DNA of 64,000 nt, taken from Parcubacteria group bacterium. Lineage in GTDB: Bacteria > Patescibacteriota > Minisyncoccia > Moranbacterales > GCA-2747515. The notes beneath the pieces were generated by a model that saw only the letters and a list, made by a program, of their open reading frames with translations, had not been told where the DNA came from and did not search any database. Where the stretch lies: assembly GCA_041660065.1 (NCBI GenBank), contig JBAZXC010000001.1, positions 136,535 to 200,534 on the forward strand, written 5' to 3'. A program made the translations under genes and the position numbers. This document shows, one piece after another, positions 26,908 through 46,847 of the stretch. The first letter of the stretch is position 1; the number at the start of each line of letters is the position of its first letter.

Positions 26908-27272
26908 TTGGAAGATCATCAGGTGACAGCTCTACGGAGAGGAAAGTCCGGACACCTCGTGTCTTTATTGACACGTATAAATGGTAGCGGGTAACGCCCG
27001 TCCAGAGTGATCTGCGAGGTGCGAACAGGAACGGTTTTTTCGCGAGAAAAAACCATCCCGCATGTATATGCGGGATGATGCCCTATGGCAACATGGGGAG
27101 TGAAACGGCTAAATCCTTACTCAGGTGCAAGATCGTGTCACGCACCCCAAAATAGTGAAAATGTTTACTATTTTGGGGTGCGTGAAGAATCGCAAAGATG
27201 TTTATGGCAACATAAACACAAGACAGATTGTCATCCCAATGACAGAATCCGGCTTATCGATGATCTTCCAAT
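26908..27272 (+). ncRNA. rnpB: RNase P RNA (bacterial type A)
   Basis: P4 5' strand GGAGAGGAAAGTCCGGACACC. GGTAACGCC (P10/11). GNRA-capped helices. P4 3' strand ACAGAATCCGGCTTATCG. P1 is formed by GGAAGATCAT (26909-26918) pairing with ATGATCTTCC (27260-27269). Two track ORFs (26800..26994, 27085..27279) overlap it and are spurious. Confidence 0.85.
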
Positions 27273-38415: not shown

Positions 38416-41382
38416 ATGGAGCGATACGAACATCAAAAGATCGAGGCAAAATGGCGAGAAGCGTGGACTGCTGCCAATGTGTACAAAACGACAGAGGATC
38501 CGAAAAAAGAGAAATTCTACATTCTCGATATGTTTCCGTATCCGTCAGGTGACGGTTTGCACGTAGGTCATCCCAAGGGATACATTGCAACAGATGTGAT
38601 CTCGCGGTACAAAAAAATGAATAACTTCAATGTATTGCATCCGATGGGGTGGGATGCTTTTGGACTTCCGGCAGAGCAATATGCACTCAAAAATAAAATG
38701 CACCCAAAGATCGCGACAGATCACAATATTGCAACGTTTAAAAAGCAGTTAGAAAAGATCTCGCTGAACTATGATTGGGAACGAGAGATTTCCACAATAG
38801 ATCCATCGTTTTACAAATGGACCCAGTGGACGTTTATCCGCATGTTCAAAAAAGGATTGGTGTTTCAATCCAATGAGCCGATCAACTGGTGTCCGTCATG
38901 CAAGACGGGACTTGCCAATGAGGATCTGGAAAATGGTGCGTGTGAACGATGTGGTACGCCGATCGAAAAGAAAAAGATCCCGCAATGGGTGATCAAGATC
39001 ACGGATTATGCGGACAGACTTCTCGCTGATCTGGATAAACTTGAATGGCAAGATCACATCAAAGAATTGCAACGCAATTGGATCGGACGATCAGAGGGTG
39101 CAAAAATTCAATTCAAAATTACATGTCATCCTGAACTTGTTTCAGGATCTCAAACGAATGAACAGTTATATATTGACGTATTTACCACGCGTCCGGATAC
39201 GCTTTTTGGTGCAACCTATATGGTACTCGCTCCTGAACATCCACTTGTTGATAAATTTCTCTCTTGTCATGCTGAACTTGTTTCAGCATCTCAGGCTGAT
39301 GCAAAAGAGATCCTGAAACAAGTTCAGGATGACAAAAAAAACTGTTATTGTGCTATTTTAAATGATGGCGAAGTTCGACAATATCAAAAACAAACGCTTA
39401 CAAAGACAGAGATCGAGCGCACGACAGAAGGACGAGAAAAAACCGGTGTGAAGCTCGAGGGTGTGATGGCGATCAATCCTGCGAATGGTGCGGAGATCCC
39501 GATCTACATCGCGGATTATGTCTTGGCTGATTATGGCACAGGCGCGATCATGGCGGTGCCGGCACACGATGAAAGGGATTGGGAGTTTGCAAAGAGATAT
39601 GATATTCCGATCGTGCAAGTGGTTGCCGAACTGGATGAAACCAAAGGAAAGTATACGGTACGTGATGATAAGAAAAGTGAAGAGCGACGTAGTATCACTG
39701 TCATTATCAAGCATTGGGCAGAGGATAGATATTATTGTCTCGATTGGCGAAAATCTGATAATGACTGGACGAGTTTTGTGATCGGCGGAGTTGAGGATGG
39801 TGAGACGATCGAAGAAACGGCAGTGCGTGAGGCGCGAGAGGAAACGGGGTATCAAAATATGCGTGTCGTGCGTCGTGTAGGTCAGGTGATCCGCAGTCGA
39901 TTTTTTGCAGCGCACAAAGATATCAATATGAAAGACGCGGTACGTGAGTGTGTCTATCTCGAACTCATAGACGATGCATTTATTGCACCGGATGAAAAGC
40001 ATACAAAAAATCATGATGGCATGTGGATAGAAAAAGAAGACGTTGATGAGTTTCTCAATCTTCCTGCACAAAAAACGTATTGGCGGCAATTTCTCACGGG
40101 TGAAGACGTGTATACTGGTAGTGGCGTGATGATGAATTCCGGAGAGTTTGATGGTATGGATAGTGAAGAAGCTAAAAAGGCAATTACAGAAAAAGTGGGC
40201 GGGGAGATGACGGTGAATTACAAATTGCGCGATTGGGTATTTTCTCGCCAACGATATTGGGGTGAGCCGATCCCGCTCATTCACTGTGCGAAATGTGGTG
40301 TCGTGCCAGTACCGGAAGAAGAACTGCCTTTGACACTTCCTGAAGTTGATAACTATGAACCGACAGGCACGGGCGAGTCACCGCTTGCGGCGATTTCTGA
40401 TTGGGTCAACACAGTTTGTCCCACATGCGGAGGAGAAGCAAAGCGTGAGACCAATACGATGCCACAATGGGCTGGGTCAAGTTGGTATCACCTGCGTTAT
40501 ATCGATCCCAAAAACGATACGGCAATTATTGATAAAGACAAAGATGCATACTGGTCGCCAGTCGATTTTTATGTAGGTGGTGCAGAGCATGCGACGAGAC
40601 ATCTCATCTACGCGCGATTCTGGCACAAGTTCCTCTTTGATATCGGTGCGGTCGCCTATGATGAGCCATACAAAAAATTACAGACAGTCGGACTGATCAT
40701 GGCAGAGGATGGACGCAAGATGTCCAAGCGATGGGGCAATGTGATCAATCCGGATGAAGTGATCGATCGCTTTGGCTCTGATACATTTCGCATGTATGAA
40801 ATGTTCATGGGACCATTTGACGCAACCGTTGCGTGGAGCACGGAGAGTTTGATCGGTCCGCGCAAATTCCTCGAACGTTTGTGGAAATTTTTTGGCAATG
40901 GATTCACCGGCAATTCAGATCCTCAGATCCAGAAAGTATTGCACAAAACGATCAAAAAGGTGGGCGAGGATATCGATGCGATGAAATACAATACAGCGAT
41001 CGCACAGATGATGATCCTCATGAACACAATGGAAAAACACAAAACAATGACAACGGGAGATATGGAGAAATTTCTCCTTATCCTCTCACCGTTCTGTCCG
41101 CACATTACGCAAGAATTATGGTCGCAGTTGGGTCGTGATTCATTCATCTTGCAAGAGCAGTGGCCAATGTATGATGCGGAAAAGATCATCGATGACGAGA
41201 TCACGCTCGCAGTGCAAGTAAACGGCAAAGTGCGCGATCAGATCACCGTGAGTGCGGATATCACAGAAGAGGACGCCAAGGCACAAGCGCTTGCAAGTGA
41301 AAAGATCCAAAAATACACCGCCGGCAAAGACCCAAAAAAGATCATCTTTGTAAAAGGGAAGTTGATTAGTATCGTTGTGTAA
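38416..41382 (+). CDS. leuS: Leucyl-tRNA synthetase with an inserted Nudix hydrolase domain
   Basis: HIGH (HVGHPKGY), CP1 editing domain (TTRPDTLFGATYMVLAPEHP…AVPAHDERDWEFAKRYDIPI), KMSKS (KMSKRWGN), anticodon-binding domain. Between …YDIPIVQVVAE and …NSGEFDGMDSEEAK (E. coli has ~20 aa here) lies a ~160-aa insertion with a perfect Nudix box GGVEDGETIEETAVREAREETGY. Confidence 0.9.
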   Translation: MERYEHQKIEAKWREAWTAANVYKTTEDPKKEKFYILDMFPYPSGDGLHVGHPKGYIATDVISRYKKMNNFNVLHPMGWDAFGLPAEQYALKNKMHPKIATDHNIATFKKQLEKISLNYDWEREISTIDPSFYKWTQWTFIRMFKKGLVFQSNEPINWCPSCKTGLANEDLENGACERCGTPIEKKKIPQWVIKITDYADRLLADLDKLEWQDHIKELQRNWIGRSEGAKIQFKITCHPELVSGSQTNEQLYIDVFTTRPDTLFGATYMVLAPEHPLVDKFLSCHAELVSASQADAKEILKQVQDDKKNCYCAILNDGEVRQYQKQTLTKTEIERTTEGREKTGVKLEGVMAINPANGAEIPIYIADYVLADYGTGAIMAVPAHDERDWEFAKRYDIPIVQVVAELDETKGKYTVRDDKKSEERRSITVIIKHWAEDRYYCLDWRKSDNDWTSFVIGGVEDGETIEETAVREAREETGYQNMRVVRRVGQVIRSRFFAAHKDINMKDAVRECVYLELIDDAFIAPDEKHTKNHDGMWIEKEDVDEFLNLPAQKTYWRQFLTGEDVYTGSGVMMNSGEFDGMDSEEAKKAITEKVGGEMTVNYKLRDWVFSRQRYWGEPIPLIHCAKCGVVPVPEEELPLTLPEVDNYEPTGTGESPLAAISDWVNTVCPTCGGEAKRETNTMPQWAGSSWYHLRYIDPKNDTAIIDKDKDAYWSPVDFYVGGAEHATRHLIYARFWHKFLFDIGAVAYDEPYKKLQTVGLIMAEDGRKMSKRWGNVINPDEVIDRFGSDTFRMYEMFMGPFDATVAWSTESLIGPRKFLERLWKFFGNGFTGNSDPQIQKVLHKTIKKVGEDIDAMKYNTAIAQMMILMNTMEKHKTMTTGDMEKFLLILSPFCPHITQELWSQLGRDSFILQEQWPMYDAEKIIDDEITLAVQVNGKVRDQITVSADITEEDAKAQALASEKIQKYTAGKDPKKIIFVKGKLISIVV

Positions 41383-41389
41383 TTATTTT

Positions 41390-41416
41390 AAGCACCTCAA
41401 AAGAGGTGTTTTAAAA
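41390..41416 (+). terminator. Rho-independent terminator after leuS
   Basis: GCACCTC-aaaa-GAGGTGT followed by TTT. Confidence 0.55.
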
Positions 41417-41607
41417 TTATTTTTCATAACGTATCCGAATATGAGAAGTTTTTGACTTCAAATAGTTTTAAAATTTGTAAGAATTGATACAAAATTTTCG
41501 TCTGATATTTTTTGAAACGATTATCGGTAAATGGGTTGGAATATTTTTCTTTCAAATCTATGCTTTCTGCATAAATTGCCATGTGAAACAAAAAGGAATG
41601 ATAATCA

Positions 41608-42312
41608 TCAATTTTCAACGTGATATTTTTTAACAATCATCCTATTAAAATTTTCCTTGCCGTTTTTGCCGGGAACCAGTTTAATCGTATAATCGTCTAT
41701 AAAAATTTCTCCCCTCATGTTAGGCGCCGATAAAACAAATGACTGATATTCGCCGCTTTCAGCGGCCGGATCTATGCCCTGGGATTGAAGCTCATTAACT
41801 AGTGCAGAGTTAATTTCTCTTCCAATATAATCTTTTGATAGGTTGCCTTCTCTTATACTCAAAATAACTGATTTAATTCTGTTGGATATTACGGAATTCA
41901 TATAGTTAGCACCTTTTTCCCTCGAAGAGCATGCATCTCGAGATGGCCTGATTATCTCAACCCCCAAAGCACCAGCAAGCATATCTCCAATGCCTGAGGT
42001 ATACGGATGCCATAAGTCGCCAGTAACAATGTGAGTTATTTTGTCTTGAATTATTAATTTATTTAATTCGACAAATAATTCATGCAGGTATAAGTTATTT
42101 GAATTGATTATTATTTCTTTGTGCGGCAGGCCAATTAAGCTTAATTGCGTTTTTCTTAATTTCTCATCGGCTTCCGGACCGGCATGCAATTGAGTATCGC
42201 CGATCGGCGATTTGATGCTCACTAAATATTCAATGTCATTCATTTCCCGCGCTCTTATTAAGGAATAAAAGCTATCTTTCCCTCCGCTAAATAATACGAT
42301 TGTTTTTCTCAT
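41608..42312 (-). CDS. PP-loop ATPase of the MJ0570/Dph6 (diphthine-ammonia ligase-like) family
   Basis: MRKTIVLFSGGKDSFYSLIRA… carries the SGGKDS PP-loop, followed by …IVTGDLWHPYTS…. The track extends it to a TTG at 42420; the ATG at 42312 is preferred. Confidence 0.6.
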   Translation of the reverse strand: MRKTIVLFSGGKDSFYSLIRAREMNDIEYLVSIKSPIGDTQLHAGPEADEKLRKTQLSLIGLPHKEIIINSNNLYLHELFVELNKLIIQDKITHIVTGDLWHPYTSGIGDMLAGALGVEIIRPSRDACSSREKGANYMNSVISNRIKSVILSIREGNLSKDYIGREINSALVNELQSQGIDPAAESGEYQSFVLSAPNMRGEIFIDDYTIKLVPGKNGKENFNRMIVKKYHVEN

Positions 42313-42507
42313 AATTTTATCCGTTTTTTCTACGACCAAAGAAGCATAAAAACACCTTTTCCCCTTTATAAAAAAATTAAAAATCAAATTTTCGTCCCTG
42401 TTCAAATCACAAATCTTCAAACTATCGCCAAGATAAAAAATTTATTTCGCCACAACGTATCGCAATGTCCGACGTTTGCCTTAGCGAATGTGGCTTTATT
42501 TTTTTCC

Positions 42508-43530
42508 TTATTTTTCTCCAGTCGGTAAAGATTTTACAAATTTATCAAAATCCGATTCTATTGACTGTGTTTTATTATATTCATCATATTCTTGAAATGC
42601 TTTTTGTTCTGCTTGGGCGCGAGAAATCGTGCCTTTTCCCTCAAGCACTTCATACTTATTAAACTCCAAAAAGTTGTTCACGGACTCCGCCAATTTTTCC
42701 ATCGTAAGAGCAGTGCGATTTTCAATCAGTCTTTCGATGTAATCAAAATAGCCGACGATGCCTCTTTCTAGTTTCTTTATTTTATCCTCAGTAAGATAAT
42801 TTTTGGCAATAATTGTGTCTGATTTCAGAATTCTGCTCTTTGGCGAATTTTTCCAAGTCTTGAGTCCCATGAAAGGTTTTTGCTTGTCTACTGTTTCATA
42901 AACAATCTCAGCTGCGGTTTTGCCGGTAATGGCAAAATGAAATTTATTTTGGATCATTGCATAAAAATTCTTGGCAATTTCTGACGTGGGGCTATAATCC
43001 ATGCTACATTCAGCAAAAATATCCGTAATTTGCTGATAAATTTTTCTCTCACTGGCACGAATAGAACGGACTCTTTCCAAGAGTTCGAGAAAGTAATCTT
43101 TGTCGAAATATCTTCCGTTCTTTAATCTCTCATCATCCATGGTGAAACCTTTGATGATGTATTCCTTAAGCCTTTCCGTTGCCCAAATACGAAACTGAGT
43201 GGCTTGCGATGAGTTTACCCGATAGCCAACCGAAATAATGGCATCAAGATTATAGAACTTTGTTTGGTATTTTTTGCCATCATTGGCAGTGTATTCCAAA
43301 ATGGAATGAACTGAATTTTCCAGCAATTCGCCACTTTCAAAGATATTCTTTAAATGCTTAGCAATAGCTGGTTGTTGCACACCAAACAATCTGGCCATCT
43401 TATCTTGGTTAAGCCAAATATTTTCGTCATGAAAGTAAATTTCCACTTTTACCTTGCCACTTGGCGCTGTGTAAAGCAGAAATTCCGTCAGTTCGTCTTT
43501 GATGGTGATTTGGTGATTATTTTTAGTCAT
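42508..43530 (-). CDS. RhuM-family protein (virulence/mobile-element-associated DNA-binding family)
   Basis: …KVKVEIYFHDENIWLNQDKMARLFGVQQPAIAKHLKNIFESGEL…YNLDAIISVGYRVNSSQATQFRIWATERLKEYIIKGFTMDDERLK… is a strong RhuM signature. Confidence 0.8.
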   Translation of the reverse strand: MTKNNHQITIKDELTEFLLYTAPSGKVKVEIYFHDENIWLNQDKMARLFGVQQPAIAKHLKNIFESGELLENSVHSILEYTANDGKKYQTKFYNLDAIISVGYRVNSSQATQFRIWATERLKEYIIKGFTMDDERLKNGRYFDKDYFLELLERVRSIRASERKIYQQITDIFAECSMDYSPTSEIAKNFYAMIQNKFHFAITGKTAAEIVYETVDKQKPFMGLKTWKNSPKSRILKSDTIIAKNYLTEDKIKKLERGIVGYFDYIERLIENRTALTMEKLAESVNNFLEFNKYEVLEGKGTISRAQAEQKAFQEYDEYNKTQSIESDFDKFVKSLPTGEK

Positions 43531-43565
43531 ATTATCTTAGGCATTAGATCTTCCATAAATTTGTT

Positions 43566-43627
43566 AATATTCGCCTATCTTGATTATATCACCAAACTTG
43601 CTATTTTGTCAGCGCAATTTGCCTGCC
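43566..43627 (-). promoter_or_regulatory. Promoter module for rhuM (minus strand: CTGACA-18-TGATATAAT extended -10); ~60-bp module repeated at 46848-46910
   Basis: The rc of 43581-43627 is AGGCAGGCAAATTGCGCTGACAAAATAGCAAGTTTGGTGATATAATCA. The second copy upstream of ORF 46029..46796 shares TGATTATATCACyAAACTTtGCT.TTG.C..GCGCAATTTGyCTGCCT. Confidence 0.5.
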
Positions 43628-43901
43628 TGCCGGTGGGCAGGGGAGAGTCCCGATATCCGTTATTATGTATCAAGTGAAAAATCGGGGATGACGCATTTGC
43701 ATCACCCCCGTTGTTGTGAGATGAGATCAAGTGTCTCTTTCCCTAGGCCATTCTCACCCGGCCAAAGGTTTTCGCCTTTCTGCTGTTTACCCGCTGGGTC
43801 GGAGTCGTCATTTCTCCTCCGCATGGGGTAGCTTGGTCTGGCCGCTTGTAAGGGAACAGCAGTTATTCCTTGCAACAGGATCAGGGTGCGTTAGGTGAAC
43901 C
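43621..43901 (+). ncRNA. Candidate structured non-coding RNA of unknown class (GC-rich, multiple hairpins, ends in intrinsic terminator)
   Basis: A ~280-nt segment at about 55% GC inside a ~32% GC island. No credible ORF on either strand. Hairpins include CCTGCC/GGCAGG, CCCGAT/ATCGGG, GGGGATG/CATC(a)CCCC, AAAGG/CCTTT, CGGAG/CTCCG, and TTGTAAGGGA/TCCTTGCAA with a GAACAGCAGTTAT loop. It ends with ATCAGG-gtgcgttaggtgaa-CCTGAT plus TTTTTT (43870-43901). I could not match it to RNase P, SRP, tmRNA, 6S or rRNA consensus. Confidence 0.3.
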
Positions 43902-44410
43902 TGATTTTTTATCCTATTGAGTTATTAACAACAAGCAGCATACCATCCTAGCGCCAATTAGACGAAAATTCTATAACTATCCGTATGAATCACCTCCTTT
44001 TTGTTCAGAATTTTTCTAAAAATATTTTTCATAACGTTTAAGAATAAAAGAAGTCACACGCCGACTAAAAACGTAAAGCTTATCCTATCCTCGAAACTTG
44101 TTAAATAGCACTGGCTCTATTATATCACAGAACTAAGGCGAGGGATTTGGAAAAATTCCGAGCCGAGGCCATTTTACTTTTATTCTTTGTTAGGCGAGGG
44201 TTTGATTTTTTTCCTTGATGTAAGAAATATAAAATAAAAAATCAAAAGCGTGGCGTCCCCTTAAGTTTTAAAGAAAAAATTTTGTTATTTTTAGTTTATA
44301 AAAGACATTTTTCTTAATATTGACACCACATAATAAATTTGATTAAATTAAGCATAGCTCTACACACAAGATGTGCATAAACTAGAAGTCCTAGCCGAAA
44401 GGAGACTAAG

Positions 44411-44575
44411 ATGGGAAATCTTGAAGAGTACTATGACAAGGACTACGGCAGACGGTATTATAAGCTAACAGCCGAAGCAGAAAGGAAAAAGCGACAAAAA
44501 GAAAAAAGGGAGGAGGAGGAACTAAAGCAAAAGGGGACGTGGCCTCACGGTATGCCCTGGGGAGGGAAAAAATAA
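44411..44575 (+). CDS. Small basic hypothetical protein (54 aa)
   Basis: TTGACA-17-TTAAAT promoter at 44322. AAAGGAGA RBS 7 nt upstream of the ATG. Translation MGNLEEYYDKDYGRRYYKLTAEAERKKRQKEKREEEELKQKGTWPHGMPWGGKK. An intrinsic terminator follows at 44620-44655. Confidence 0.35.
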   Translation: MGNLEEYYDKDYGRRYYKLTAEAERKKRQKEKREEEELKQKGTWPHGMPWGGKK

Positions 44576-44619
44576 GACCATGCCACGGATGGTATTATCT
44601 CTTGGAGAAACTATCTTAC

Positions 44620-44655
44620 CGCCAATACACCAAAAAGGTTGAGGCGGTTTTTTCT
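44620..44655 (+). terminator. Rho-independent terminator
   Basis: CCGCC-aatacaccaaaaaggttga-GGCGG followed by TTTTTTCTTTG. Confidence 0.5.
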
Positions 44656-44715
44656 TTGTAAAAAATTTCAAAAAATGGCTGTAAAAAAATAAAATTTAAG
44701 GGCAAAGTCATATTT

Positions 44716-44898
44716 TTATTGGTATGTACAAATATAACTAGAGGTTTCTTTTGCTACGATAGCAAATGGCGCACCTAGCTTGACTACAACTTTTTGACCT
44801 GGCAAACACGGTTCATTATTGATTTCCAACGAACCTGTTAAGCATTGTATGGTTTCTTCACGATCAGGCGTAAAAGTATAATTGCCAGGCTCGACCAC
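44716..44898 (-). pseudogene. C-terminal fragment of a cupin (cupin_3/DUF861-like) protein
   Basis: …EPGNYTFTPDREETIQCLTGSLEINNEPCLPGQKVVVKLGAPFAIVAKETSSYICTY matches the C-terminal ~60 aa of small cupins. An in-frame stop lies immediately upstream, so the N-terminal half is missing. Confidence 0.3.
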
Positions 44899-44921
44899 TT
44901 AGCCCTTGCGGATATCGAGTG

Positions 44922-45437
44922 TTATCGGATGTAATTAAAATTTTTATATTCCTTATGAAGTATGTTTTTAGGTCTGTGTTTACCTTCAGATTGATTTAAT
45001 ATTTTTTTAAACTGCACATTGTCTAGAGTAACAGAACCAAAAAGCTGTATTAAAATTGAAGCCAGCGCGAGTACCGAAGAAATTACAATTGCGAAAAGTG
45101 CCATGTTTTTTGCCGTTTTCGATGATCTTAATGCCTCTCTGAATTCACGATAATCAATATAATTGAAGAAAGCATCGTGATTGAGAATAAATTTATCATT
45201 CTCAATATTTAAAAACATTGTATTTCGTACCGGGAGCATTCCACCATGTCCTTCACGATCAGTATGTACGAATTGCCCGCCATTTAACGTATCACTAATT
45301 TGCTTATTGACAATTTTTTTCTCCCAGTCATTTAGGTCAAGATTTTTTTCTAATTCTTCTTGGGTAAAACCGTCTGGATTTTTATATCCAAATTCAGATA
45401 TTCTTATGTATAAATTTTTTTCTTCTGGGTGTTGCAT
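44922..45437 (-). CDS. Hypothetical protein with C-terminal TM helix
   Basis: 171 aa, AT-rich. No family recognised. Confidence 0.4.
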   Translation of the reverse strand: MQHPEEKNLYIRISEFGYKNPDGFTQEELEKNLDLNDWEKKIVNKQISDTLNGGQFVHTDREGHGGMLPVRNTMFLNIENDKFILNHDAFFNYIDYREFREALRSSKTAKNMALFAIVISSVLALASILIQLFGSVTLDNVQFKKILNQSEGKHRPKNILHKEYKNFNYIR

Positions 45438-45570
45438 TTTTTATTAAAAGAAAGATAAAAATTTTAATTATTTCATAACGTATTGGCATCATGCGAGGTG
45501 CAAAGCATTTGGGTGAAGCGTAGCGGAGCCGGATATGCCGTGTTGTGCGATGTAAATTTTTATAATCCAC

Positions 45571-45978
45571 TTATTTAAATGGCTTAAAACCTTGTTTAAT
45601 CAGATTCTGCTGGGGAATAAATAGGGGTTGGGGTGGGTTAGTCCAATCAAACCATGACCATTGTTCACATTTTTTTGGTTCCATAATTTGCAAATCGCCC
45701 GATTCATATTCAGCAGTCATAAATATAGTGATGTAGTGTTTACCTTCAATCGGAAAAATGTCGTTGGTAGCAGCGACAAAGTTTACATTTTTAATGCTCA
45801 AGCCAGTTTCTTCCAAAGTTTCACGTGCCGCACATTCTTCCCATGACTCATTAAATTCAAGGTGACCACCAGGAAAACACCACGAACCGTCACCGTGAGC
45901 ATTTTTACGTTTACCAAAGAGAACTTTGCCATCTTTTAAAACGAGAACTCCAATTCCGACTTTTGGTCTATTTTCCAT
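45571..45978 (-). CDS. Nudix hydrolase (MutT-like)
   Basis: Nudix box GGHLEFNESWEECAARETLEETGL (G-x5-E-x7-REUxEExGU). Confidence 0.8.
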   Translation of the reverse strand: MENRPKVGIGVLVLKDGKVLFGKRKNAHGDGSWCFPGGHLEFNESWEECAARETLEETGLSIKNVNFVAATNDIFPIEGKHYITIFMTAEYESGDLQIMEPKKCEQWSWFDWTNPPQPLFIPQQNLIKQGFKPFK

Positions 45979-46028
45979 ACGTTCAAATATTATTTCCTTA
46001 TTATTAAGTGGGGTAGGACTTTATTAAT

Positions 46029-46796
46029 TTATTTTTCAACAAAATAAACTCCGATGTGTTTGTCGTACAAAAGCTCATCTAAGAGAATTATAATTTTTTC
46101 TGAAATTTTATTTCCTTCTTTAATGTCTTCTTTTGTTAATTCACGACCATGAAATATTTCACCTCTTTTTTGACTGAAATATTGTATCGCTAAATATAAC
46201 TCCTTATCGATTATACCACTTTTGAAGAGGTTTCTGCTTTGATTTAAAACTGATCGATTTCTAAGTTCATCATTTTTTGAAGCCAATGAAAGCTCATTTA
46301 GATTTTCCTGGATTTTTTTATAATTCAGAAAAAATTTATATAAATACCGGCTTAAGTCTGGAATAATTTCTTCATCTTTTTCTGTTTTAACTTTTTTATC
46401 TATTGTAACACCCTTGGTTTTATCGTCTAAATATTTTTTCAACTCCTCAACCTCTTTTTTGTCAAATGGGTGAGTGATAACCTGAACACTTTGTTGCTGG
46501 TTTACAGTAGAAATAATGGTATTTTGTAGTGAAGCAAATTTTTCAATAGTCTCGTGCCTCAAACTTTCAATGTCTTTTTTTATTTTTAAAACATTTAAAA
46601 TACTCAGCTCACTAACTAGTGGCAGCAAGACAACAGATACTATGACAATAAAAAGCATGTTACTAAAAAAGTCTCCTTTGATTGAAAAAATATTGGCTTG
46701 GTAAAGGATAAATACAATAGCTAACAAAATGAATGCTATCAGATTGTACCAGTTCTTTGTATTCATAAAATAAATTAATAAAGCCTCATTTTTCAT
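46029..46796 (-). CDS. Hypothetical membrane protein (2 N-terminal TM helices, coiled-coil middle)
   Basis: 255 aa. Its start codon lies inside the repeated leader element TTTTCATAACGTATCCGAATAT (46790-46811). Confidence 0.45.
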   Translation of the reverse strand: MKNEALLIYFMNTKNWYNLIAFILLAIVFILYQANIFSIKGDFFSNMLFIVIVSVVLLPLVSELSILNVLKIKKDIESLRHETIEKFASLQNTIISTVNQQQSVQVITHPFDKKEVEELKKYLDDKTKGVTIDKKVKTEKDEEIIPDLSRYLYKFFLNYKKIQENLNELSLASKNDELRNRSVLNQSRNLFKSGIIDKELYLAIQYFSQKRGEIFHGRELTKEDIKEGNKISEKIIILLDELLYDKHIGVYFVEK

Positions 46797-46847
46797 AACG
46801 TATCCGAATATCTGAGGTTGCGCCCGTGTTTAATGGCTAAAACTTCA

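Follow-up and report, generated by a model that had tools for sequence, protein, structure and literature searches.

A Nudix domain embedded in the editing domain of a Parcubacteria leucyl-tRNA synthetase and its ties to aminoacyl-tRNA synthetases

The 64,000-nucleotide stretch analyzed here (the window) comes from a Parcubacteria group bacterium (contig JBAZXC010000001.1, positions 136,535 to 200,534). On its plus strand it carries leuS (38416..41382), which encodes a bacterial-type leucyl-tRNA synthetase (LeuRS) of 988 amino acids that is host to an inserted Nudix domain, the subject of this work. The original prediction, made from the sequence alone, had named both the enzyme and its size; the open reading frame (ORF) and the TIGR00396 leuS_bact model (994 bits, against a cut-off of 548.4) agree with it. 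The Thermus thermophilus LeuRS (1h3n) aligns with the window protein at an E value of 4e-211, and an identical protein is on record as [quoted passage not shown] (P0001). When modeled at full length with 75 aligned relatives, the protein was predicted by AlphaFold2 (AF2) with a local confidence score (pLDDT) of 86.9 and a global template-modeling score (pTM) of 0.77.

The synthetic site includes a HIGH motif in the form HVGH (residues 49-52; 38560..38571, plus strand), in which H49, V50, G51, and H52 show no variation among the 75 relatives, and a KMSKS motif in the form KMSKR (residues 768-772; 40717..40731, plus strand), invariant in the same alignment. Both editing motifs, TTRPDT (residues 257-262; 39184-39201, plus strand) and AHDERD (residues 383-388; 39562-39579, plus strand), are intact, and T257, T258, R259, D261, T262, H384, D385, R387, and D388 are invariant as well. 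The window protein is a working bacterial-type LeuRS with its synthetic and editing motifs intact, and neither aminoacylation nor editing would seem to need the Nudix module.

The editing domain, connective peptide 1 (CP1), extends over residues ~224-608 (39085..40239, plus strand), approximate limits that were drawn from the alignment to T. thermophilus LeuRS, and it is split by the Nudix module. The Pfam editing-domain model PF13603 recognizes the protein with 201 bits over three stretches, the best of which (residues 317-412) corresponds to model positions 55-148 of 185. Residues 319-405 of the window protein align with T. thermophilus residues 279-364, and residues 564-764 align with residues 375-580; thus ~158 residues stand in place of a 10-residue loop. 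In close relatives that lack the insert, IVQVVA (residues 399-404) is followed by a loop of ~8 residues and then by AYTGxG, the equivalent of VYTGSG at residue 565. By comparison with these relatives, the inserted module with its linkers comprises residues ~405-564 (39628..40107, plus strand), and its folded core comprises residues ~421-561 (39676-40098). The T. thermophilus CP1 reportedly spans about residues 224-417 (Cusack and colleagues, 2000). The insert was originally placed at the C-terminal boundary of CP1. This proved wrong: since the insertion point follows position 148 of the 185-position Pfam model and T. thermophilus residue 364, the alignments put the insert within CP1, an estimated 40-45 residues ahead of its end.

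The insert carries a Nudix box, GGVEDGETIEETAVREAREETGY (residues 457-479; 39784..39852, plus strand), that fits the GX5EX7REUXEEXGU pattern at every position. The Pfam NUDIX model PF00293 matches residues 446-545 of the full protein with 47.0 bits and the excised segment (residues 402-572) with 51.2 bits (E=1.7e-13), both above the gathering score of 21.1. AF2 predicted the excised segment, with 41 aligned inserts, at a pLDDT of 94.3 and with the usual Nudix order of strands and helices, and the predicted fold is an alpha/beta/alpha sandwich with the catalytic helix; in the full-length model, most of the insert region has a pLDDT of 89-97. The box, the Pfam score, and the predicted fold allow the insert to be assigned to the Nudix superfamily. 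The predicted insertion of ~160 residues with a canonical box thus holds, and the insert passes the PF00293 threshold and is confidently predicted to fold as a domain of its own: in place of a short CP1 surface loop there is an autonomous domain of the Nudix fold, 150-160 residues long, with all catalytic residues. Across the insert borders there is no abrupt step in base composition, and a search for flanking direct repeats or a target-site duplication returned only weak, chance-like matches. We also considered an intein or another self-splicing element and rejected it. The insert begins with ELDETK and ends with FLTGED, followed by VYTG, with no splice-junction residues, and no intein or endonuclease domain was matched by Pfam in the LeuRS.

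The box is under purifying selection in LeuRS inserts. Over 91 inserts, G457 is kept in all 91, E472 and E476 in 90 each, and E475 and G478 in 89 each; the box is fully canonical in 70 of 90 inserts, and all three REUXEE glutamates are present in 89 of 90. Because these glutamates are retained although the 90 homologous inserts are just 22-51% identical to the window insert, selection appears to act on catalysis. A set of residues outside the box also characterizes the subfamily (R424, K432, H433, W444, W451, F496/F497, K501, N504, K506, H533, and W537; 39685..40029, plus strand). Among the 91 inserts, R424 is found in 86, K501 in 88, N504 in 90, H533 in 84, and W537 in 90, while position 506 is arginine in most members and lysine in the window insert. 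Such a pattern befits an active enzyme that has a defined pocket rather than a decaying passenger. Most of the LeuRS clade of the window protein has a variant box, GGIEDGQT..AARMEILEETGY (E463Q; R471M/A/T), whereas the window copy is canonical. This variant is the commonest insert type in the clade (P0003, P0004, P0008, P0009, P0012, P0013, and P0015) and still has the three REUXEE glutamates. The insert of P0002, in which the HK..NR signature is missing, represents a third and very divergent type. To judge from these sequences, activity may differ between insert types.

The LeuRS-Nudix fusion is common in Patescibacteria and is not peculiar to the source genome. When the 120 best LeuRS relatives, all from metagenome-assembled genomes of Patescibacteria and from independent assemblies, were aligned with MAFFT, 91 of them showed a Nudix domain of ~150 residues at the same site, between positions 364 and 369 of the reference protein P0005, which has no insert. 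A scan of the Genome Taxonomy Database (GTDB) with one genome per species gave 31 good loci, 25 of which encode a LeuRS with the Nudix domain at this site; the titles of the records name Paceibacterota, Moraniibacteriota, Parcubacteria, or Patescibacteria. The proposed survey of related LeuRS sequences therefore recovered the insertion itself and did away with the notion of a single-genome oddity. A few contigs that encode a Nudix-bearing, bacterial-type LeuRS have other titles: Nanoarchaeota archaeon, archaeon, or Woesearchaeota archaeon (L017, L020 on a 985-kb contig, and L026) and Bdellovibrionales or Gammaproteobacteria (L016 and L028). These reflect either bin or label errors or a transfer of leuS from candidate phyla radiation (CPR) to DPANN organisms.

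The same survey bears on whether the fusion could be an assembly chimera, as the original prediction had allowed, or else a recent copy of a nearby stand-alone Nudix gene, which it had named as a possible donor. That gene, at 45571..45978 on the minus strand, is present and encodes a 135-residue Nudix protein (81 bits to PF00293), so that two Nudix genes do co-occur within 6 kb. Yet it lies outside the feature and belongs to a different Nudix family: it is only 24% identical to the insert over 108 residues (E=0.013 in a single comparison), and a profile built from the insert family scores 26 bits on it, against 206 bits on the LeuRS insert. These values rule it out as the donor. Against a chimera, NCBI, JGI, ENA, and Logan assemblies together supply more than 90 proteins with the same architecture and junctions, the exact LeuRS protein is found on a 469-kb contig (P0001), the ORF is unbroken, and the window has no ambiguous bases. 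Because dozens of independent assemblies share the junctions, an assembly artefact is excluded as far as is possible without reads, and we give either origin practically no weight. A close homolog of the 45571-45978 gene adjoins a stand-alone Nudix gene of the aminoacyl-tRNA synthetase (aaRS)-linked type in another locus (L092).

The evolution of the insert departs from that of its host. A neighbor-joining tree based on LeuRS core sequences has one large clade that bears the insert throughout, and insert-less enzymes of 795 residues are interspersed in the clade of the window protein; namely, the insert-less P0005-7 are sister to P0001-3. Pairwise core and insert distances are uncorrelated (Spearman r=0.057; 79 of 999 permutations reach the observed value), and core and insert point to the same nearest neighbor in only 22 of 90 cases. 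P0002 is 89% identical to the window protein in the core and 30% in the insert, and P0003 is 87% and 40% identical, respectively, while the inserts most like that of the window (54-56%) reside in hosts that are just 62-72% identical in the core. Sliding-window comparisons with P0002, P0003, and P0005 gave 90-100% identity up to the junctions and 17-50% inside the insert, where the best match shifts to more distant hosts. Insert sequence types form a mosaic over the core clades, and the insert evolves faster (mean p-distance of 0.64, against 0.36 for the core). These comparisons suggest that the module behaves as a semi-independent cassette whose phylogeny is decoupled from the LeuRS core and which has undergone repeated clean loss. 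In the simplest reading, it would be exchanged, gained, and lost by recombination through the highly conserved LeuRS flanks. An old gain followed by vertical descent with losses was rejected as a full account, given that core and insert distances do not correlate.

The insert profile was searched exhaustively against 1.84 billion cluster representatives. It retrieved 186 clusters (at 50% identity) at E<=1e-30 and 639 at E<=1e-10. The best 150 of the 186 comprise 110 LeuRS clusters, 29 small stand-alone proteins, and 11 others, among them several LeuRS fragments and one prolyl-tRNA synthetase (ProRS). Within LeuRS, the domain occupies three or more sites, with up to three copies per protein: besides the site described above, one or two copies may stand at the N-terminal hinge of CP1 (reference position ~207), where they form a sequence cluster of their own, and others lie at ~434-481. 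Three copies are found in P0121, P0122, and P0131. P0127 (379 residues) consists of at least two copies in tandem and the start of a third, without any synthetase part. The domain also occurs in a class II enzyme. In the archaeal-type ProRS P0234 (643 residues), it lies between the anticodon-binding and C-terminal domains. Five clusters of Nudix-bearing ProRS, from independent assemblies, score 151-206 bits on the LeuRS-insert profile and carry the full signature, including the residues outside the box (P0234 and P0271-P0274; locus L091, 2762-4693). Their insert-less relatives are labeled Nanoarchaeota or Woesearchaeota (DPANN).

Stand-alone members are likewise found near synthetase genes. 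We took the nine top-ranked members of <=200 residues in rank order; in seven of them an aaRS gene lies within two genes on the same strand. By a rough estimate, a random gene would lie so close in ~10% of cases, assuming a genome of ~1000 genes with ~20 aaRS genes. P0159, P0163, and P0180 are encoded 2-10 nucleotides upstream of leuS, and the adjacent LeuRS has the insert in the case of P0159 and lacks it in that of P0180. P0172 is part of a cluster with the genes for MetRS and LeuRS, P0195 is two genes upstream of a Nudix-bearing ProRS, P0214 lies 13 nucleotides downstream of ArgRS and just upstream of IleRS, and P0217 lies 15 nucleotides downstream of ProRS. The two exceptions adjoin fpg (P0189) and another Nudix gene (P0201). 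In addition, one stand-alone copy from the GTDB scan overlaps the stop codon of a gene for Sua5/YrdC (threonylcarbamoyl-AMP synthase, TsaC), another adenylate-forming tRNA enzyme, and is translationally coupled to it. The insert is thus a member of a distinct Nudix subfamily with a physical link to aminoacyl-tRNA synthetases, and what its partners have in common is ATP-dependent adenylate formation, not CP1 or leucine.

What the module might hydrolyze can be approached through its nearest characterized relatives. In the insert profile search, hydrolases of diadenosine tetraphosphate (Ap4A) come just behind AvrM14 and 2azw. The nearest characterized proteins are the Aquifex aeolicus Ap4A hydrolase (TM score of 0.81, target-normalized), Escherichia coli RppH, and Chlamydia CT771, all of which act on N-p(n)-N or cap-like linkages. 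Hydrolases of ApnA compounds reportedly have an aromatic residue (Tyr) ~17 residues downstream of the Nudix box (Dunn and colleagues, 1999). The insert has F496 and F497 at +17 and +18 from the box, positions at which 88 and 84 of 91 copies, respectively, have F or Y; the window copy has Phe, not Tyr. Synthetases themselves are an established source of Ap3-5N and related adenylylated nucleotides (PMC7705103, Table 1).

We propose that the Nudix module is an active, Mg-dependent pyrophosphohydrolase whose likeliest substrates would be dinucleoside polyphosphates (Ap3-5N) and related adenylylated by-products. Synthetases would form these when ATP or another nucleotide attacks the enzyme-bound aminoacyl-adenylate. 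A hydrolase tethered to the synthetase, or cotranscribed with it, could then return dead-end or signaling nucleotides to the mononucleotide pool. Such recycling would fit organisms of this kind, for which a lack of de novo nucleotide synthesis is generally reported. An ApnN pyrophosphohydrolase that recycles ApnN while tethered to or coexpressed with synthetases is the mechanism best supported by the sequence comparisons and predicted structures, because the nearest characterized relatives include ApnA hydrolases and because the subfamily is tied to several synthetases that share only their adenylate chemistry. We would put its probability at roughly 45%.

Several observations weigh against this proposal. 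The NCBIfam Nudix subfamily models all score far below their cut-offs on the insert (26.1 bits against 118 for the RppH equivalog PRK00714, 28.8 against 79.55 for TIGR00052 YffH/AdpP, and 25 against 103 for NudB), so that the insert cannot be filed as RppH/NudH, AdpP, or another curated subfamily. Although Rv2985, Ndx1, and 3i7u are near the top of the structural ranking, this ranking is shallow, and they are mixed with decapping enzymes and NTPases, including NudI, MutT1, and NudB. LeuRS is said to be a weak producer of Ap4A and ArgRS to produce none (Goerlich and colleagues, 1982); moreover, Ap4A is diffusible, and tethering is not obviously needed. None of the six stand-alone copies from the GTDB scan has leuS within 6 kb, and no Nudix gene lies within 6 kb of leuS in the two insert-less genomes examined. 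The module is often lost cleanly, and stand-alone members also adjoin genes for dUTPase, Tmk, an HD nucleotidase, fpg, and PRPP synthetase. Finally, other domains are found in the loops of patescibacterial LeuRS, namely, Ser_hydrolase (PF06821, single or in tandem), HAD_2, PDDEXK_3, and an unknown 133-residue domain, which suggests a general tolerance of insertions rather than a specific function. An unknown 104-residue domain occupies the Nudix site itself. The proteins with these insertions are P0015, P0023, P0034, P0038, P0105, P0059, and P0014, and their insertion sites fall at reference positions ~241, ~434, ~478, and 364; some reach 1300-1560 residues. A comparable case is an IleRS-like gene with a His_Phos_1 domain inside its catalytic domain (locus L094, 5094-8498). 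It is clustered with genes for ArgRS, a stand-alone Nudix protein of the aaRS type, a second Nudix protein, dUTPase, thymidylate kinase, and a zeta-toxin-like kinase.

These points bear most directly on an alternative in which the module is a hitch-hiking house-cleaning enzyme, that is, a pyrophosphatase of NTPs, oxidized dNTPs, or NDP-sugars with no mechanistic link to aminoacylation. The permissive loops of a large, essential, constitutive protein would then serve as a landing pad that ensures expression in a streamlined genome. The unrelated domains in LeuRS loops, the His_Phos_1 insert in an IleRS, the frequent clean loss of the module, the nucleotide-salvage and sanitation genes beside the stand-alone members (the HD protein being a 5'-nucleotidase), and the NTPases among the structural neighbors are all consistent with such an enzyme. 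Yet carriers chosen at random would hardly be synthetases every time: a single Nudix subfamily is concentrated in aaRSs, having entered LeuRS at three or more sites as well as the unrelated class II ProRS, and even its free-standing genes are mostly near an aaRS gene. We consider a house-cleaning role doubtful on balance, albeit a serious contender.

Two other roles were considered. An RppH- or AvrM14-like Nudix enzyme mounted on the mobile CP1, near the acceptor end of the tRNA, might strip tRNA(Leu) precursors or other RNAs of 5' triphosphates or Np4N/NAD-type caps. However, RNase P generates the 5' ends of mature tRNAs, and its RNA is encoded in the window (bacterial class A, 118 bits; 26911-27272, plus strand), so that no obvious tRNA substrate is left. 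In addition, the ProRS copy sits at a quite different position, the protein also occurs free, and its score on the RppH equivalog (26 bits, against 118) is low, all of which makes RNA decapping improbable. No tRNA genes were found in the 64 kb of the window. Alternatively, the Nudix and other hydrolase inserts may protect the synthetase in cis by destroying nucleotide-like inhibitors or toxins directed at aaRSs, such as aminoacyl-adenylate mimics, in a conflict that would account for the fast divergence, cassette swapping, and copy number expansion. The insert does outpace the core and is swapped among lineages, up to three Nudix copies coexist with other hydrolases, and the NCBIfam family ileS_w_GNAT may offer a parallel, by analogy with acetyltransferases that detoxify aminoacyl-nucleotides. 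In contrast, the known adenylate-mimic antibiotics contain sulfamoyl or phosphoramidate links, whose cleavage by Nudix enzymes is not known. The only PADLOC-DB match to the insert is a generic Nudix model (PDC-S07) at 15.7 bits, the PADLOC-DB defence models gave no match to the full-length LeuRS, and the neighborhoods examined showed neither toxin nor immunity genes. Protection in cis thus appears very improbable.

A broader and more speculative possibility, which we regard as unlikely, joins ApnN hydrolysis to the other grafted enzymes. In CPR bacteria, and probably in DPANN, horizontally swapped, aaRS-dedicated Nudix domains and other grafted hydrolases would form an on-enzyme layer of adenylate clean-up and protection. 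The cassette, multiplied to as many as three per LeuRS, would work with the Ser hydrolase, HAD, and His-phosphatase domains against targets such as ApnN alarmones, released non-cognate adenylate derivatives, and nucleotide-mimic inhibitors, all at their source. If true, such a system would add a new functional layer to aaRS quality control and would be more than a passive fusion.

Both synthetases with grafted domains and ApnA-hydrolyzing Nudix enzymes are already known, and the LeuRS-Nudix system resembles each in part. We compared the insert with Nudix ApnN hydrolases and RppH, namely, E. coli RppH/NudH, A. aeolicus 3i7u, T. thermophilus Ndx1 (an Ap6A hydrolase), Mycobacterium tuberculosis Rv2985, and Chlamydia CT771. 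Identity is just 14-21%, the curated subfamily models fall far short of their cut-offs, and the subfamily of the insert has a signature of its own (R424, KH432-433, W444, W451, HK..NR 500-506, H533, and W537) and an N-terminal extension. It is found in or beside an aaRS and not free-standing as these enzymes are. The uncharacterized MutT/Nudix protein 2azw of Enterococcus faecalis is free-standing too, is 15% identical to the insert, and comes with no functional information. As in other synthetases with accessory domains (CP1 editing; the IleRS-GNAT family NF040702), an extra catalytic domain is carried by a class I synthetase whose motifs are undisturbed, and it is located in or on CP1, a region with a known tolerance of peripheral insertions. 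In contrast to those grafts, the insert would be a domain of the nucleotide pyrophosphatase type, not an aminoacyl-ester hydrolase or an acetyltransferase; it is optional among close relatives, present in one to three copies, and swapped independently of the core. The pairing of an ApnN-making synthetase with an ApnN-removing hydrolase is also the concept behind the trans systems in which LysRS or LysU acts with ApaH, RppH, NUDT2, or HINT1 (PMC7705103). Those systems consist of separate, unlinked proteins and involve LysRS, while here a single polypeptide or adjacent genes are involved, with LeuRS or ProRS.

In line with the original prediction, which was aware of no account of such a fusion, we found no description of an aaRS-Nudix fusion in the full-text literature, a corpus that leaves out most subscription journals; one candidate paper, PMC7159879, proved unrelated. 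Public protein databases already contain the architecture, along with the computed Pfam domains. The apparent novelty lies in the combination: a Nudix subfamily dedicated to aaRSs, in LeuRS CP1 and in ProRS, that is optional, multicopy, and cassette-like. Whether the dinucleoside polyphosphates made by synthetases are signals or waste is a long-standing question, and a natural and widespread pairing, covalent or operonic, between synthetases and their own Nudix hydrolase would make it testable. In this regard, the pairing recurs in the class I LeuRS and the class II ProRS of minimal-genome organisms, and the insert-less sister LeuRS enzymes are natural controls for the link between synthetases and ApnN. 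That the CP1 of patescibacterial LeuRS accepts whole enzymes as swappable cassettes is relevant to aaRS evolution and to protein engineering. There is a consequence for annotation as well, as the Nudix-bearing LeuRS is now labeled just "class I tRNA ligase family protein."

Some further features of leuS and its surroundings lie apart from the Nudix module. Downstream of the gene, a stretch at ~41250-46800 is low in GC (0.28-0.39 over most of its length, compared with 0.42 in the window as a whole); the minus strand carries most of its genes, among them the unrelated MutT-like Nudix gene at 45571-45978. The leucine-specific domain of the T. thermophilus and E. coli enzymes has no counterpart in the window LeuRS (40708-40716 region, residues 764-768), as residue 764 aligns with T. 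thermophilus residue 580 and residue 768 with residue 637, skipping residues 581-636. Within CP1, outside the Nudix module, a repeat search identified three in-frame palindromic units of 24-29 nucleotides, TGTCATCCTGAACTTGTTTCAGGATCTCA (39124..39336, plus strand). Two are direct and one is inverted, with copies 1 and 3 being 100% complementary, and the unit has no further copies within the 64-kb window (0 expected by chance). They encode CHPELVSGSQ, CHAELVSASQ, and EILKQVQDDK, private additional loops of CP1 that are absent from the consensus of the relatives and from T. thermophilus LeuRS; the AF2 pLDDT is low in this region (residues 285-310). These units look like fragments of miniature inverted-repeat transposable elements (MITEs) or repetitive extragenic palindromic (REP)-type elements that have been tolerated inside the protein.

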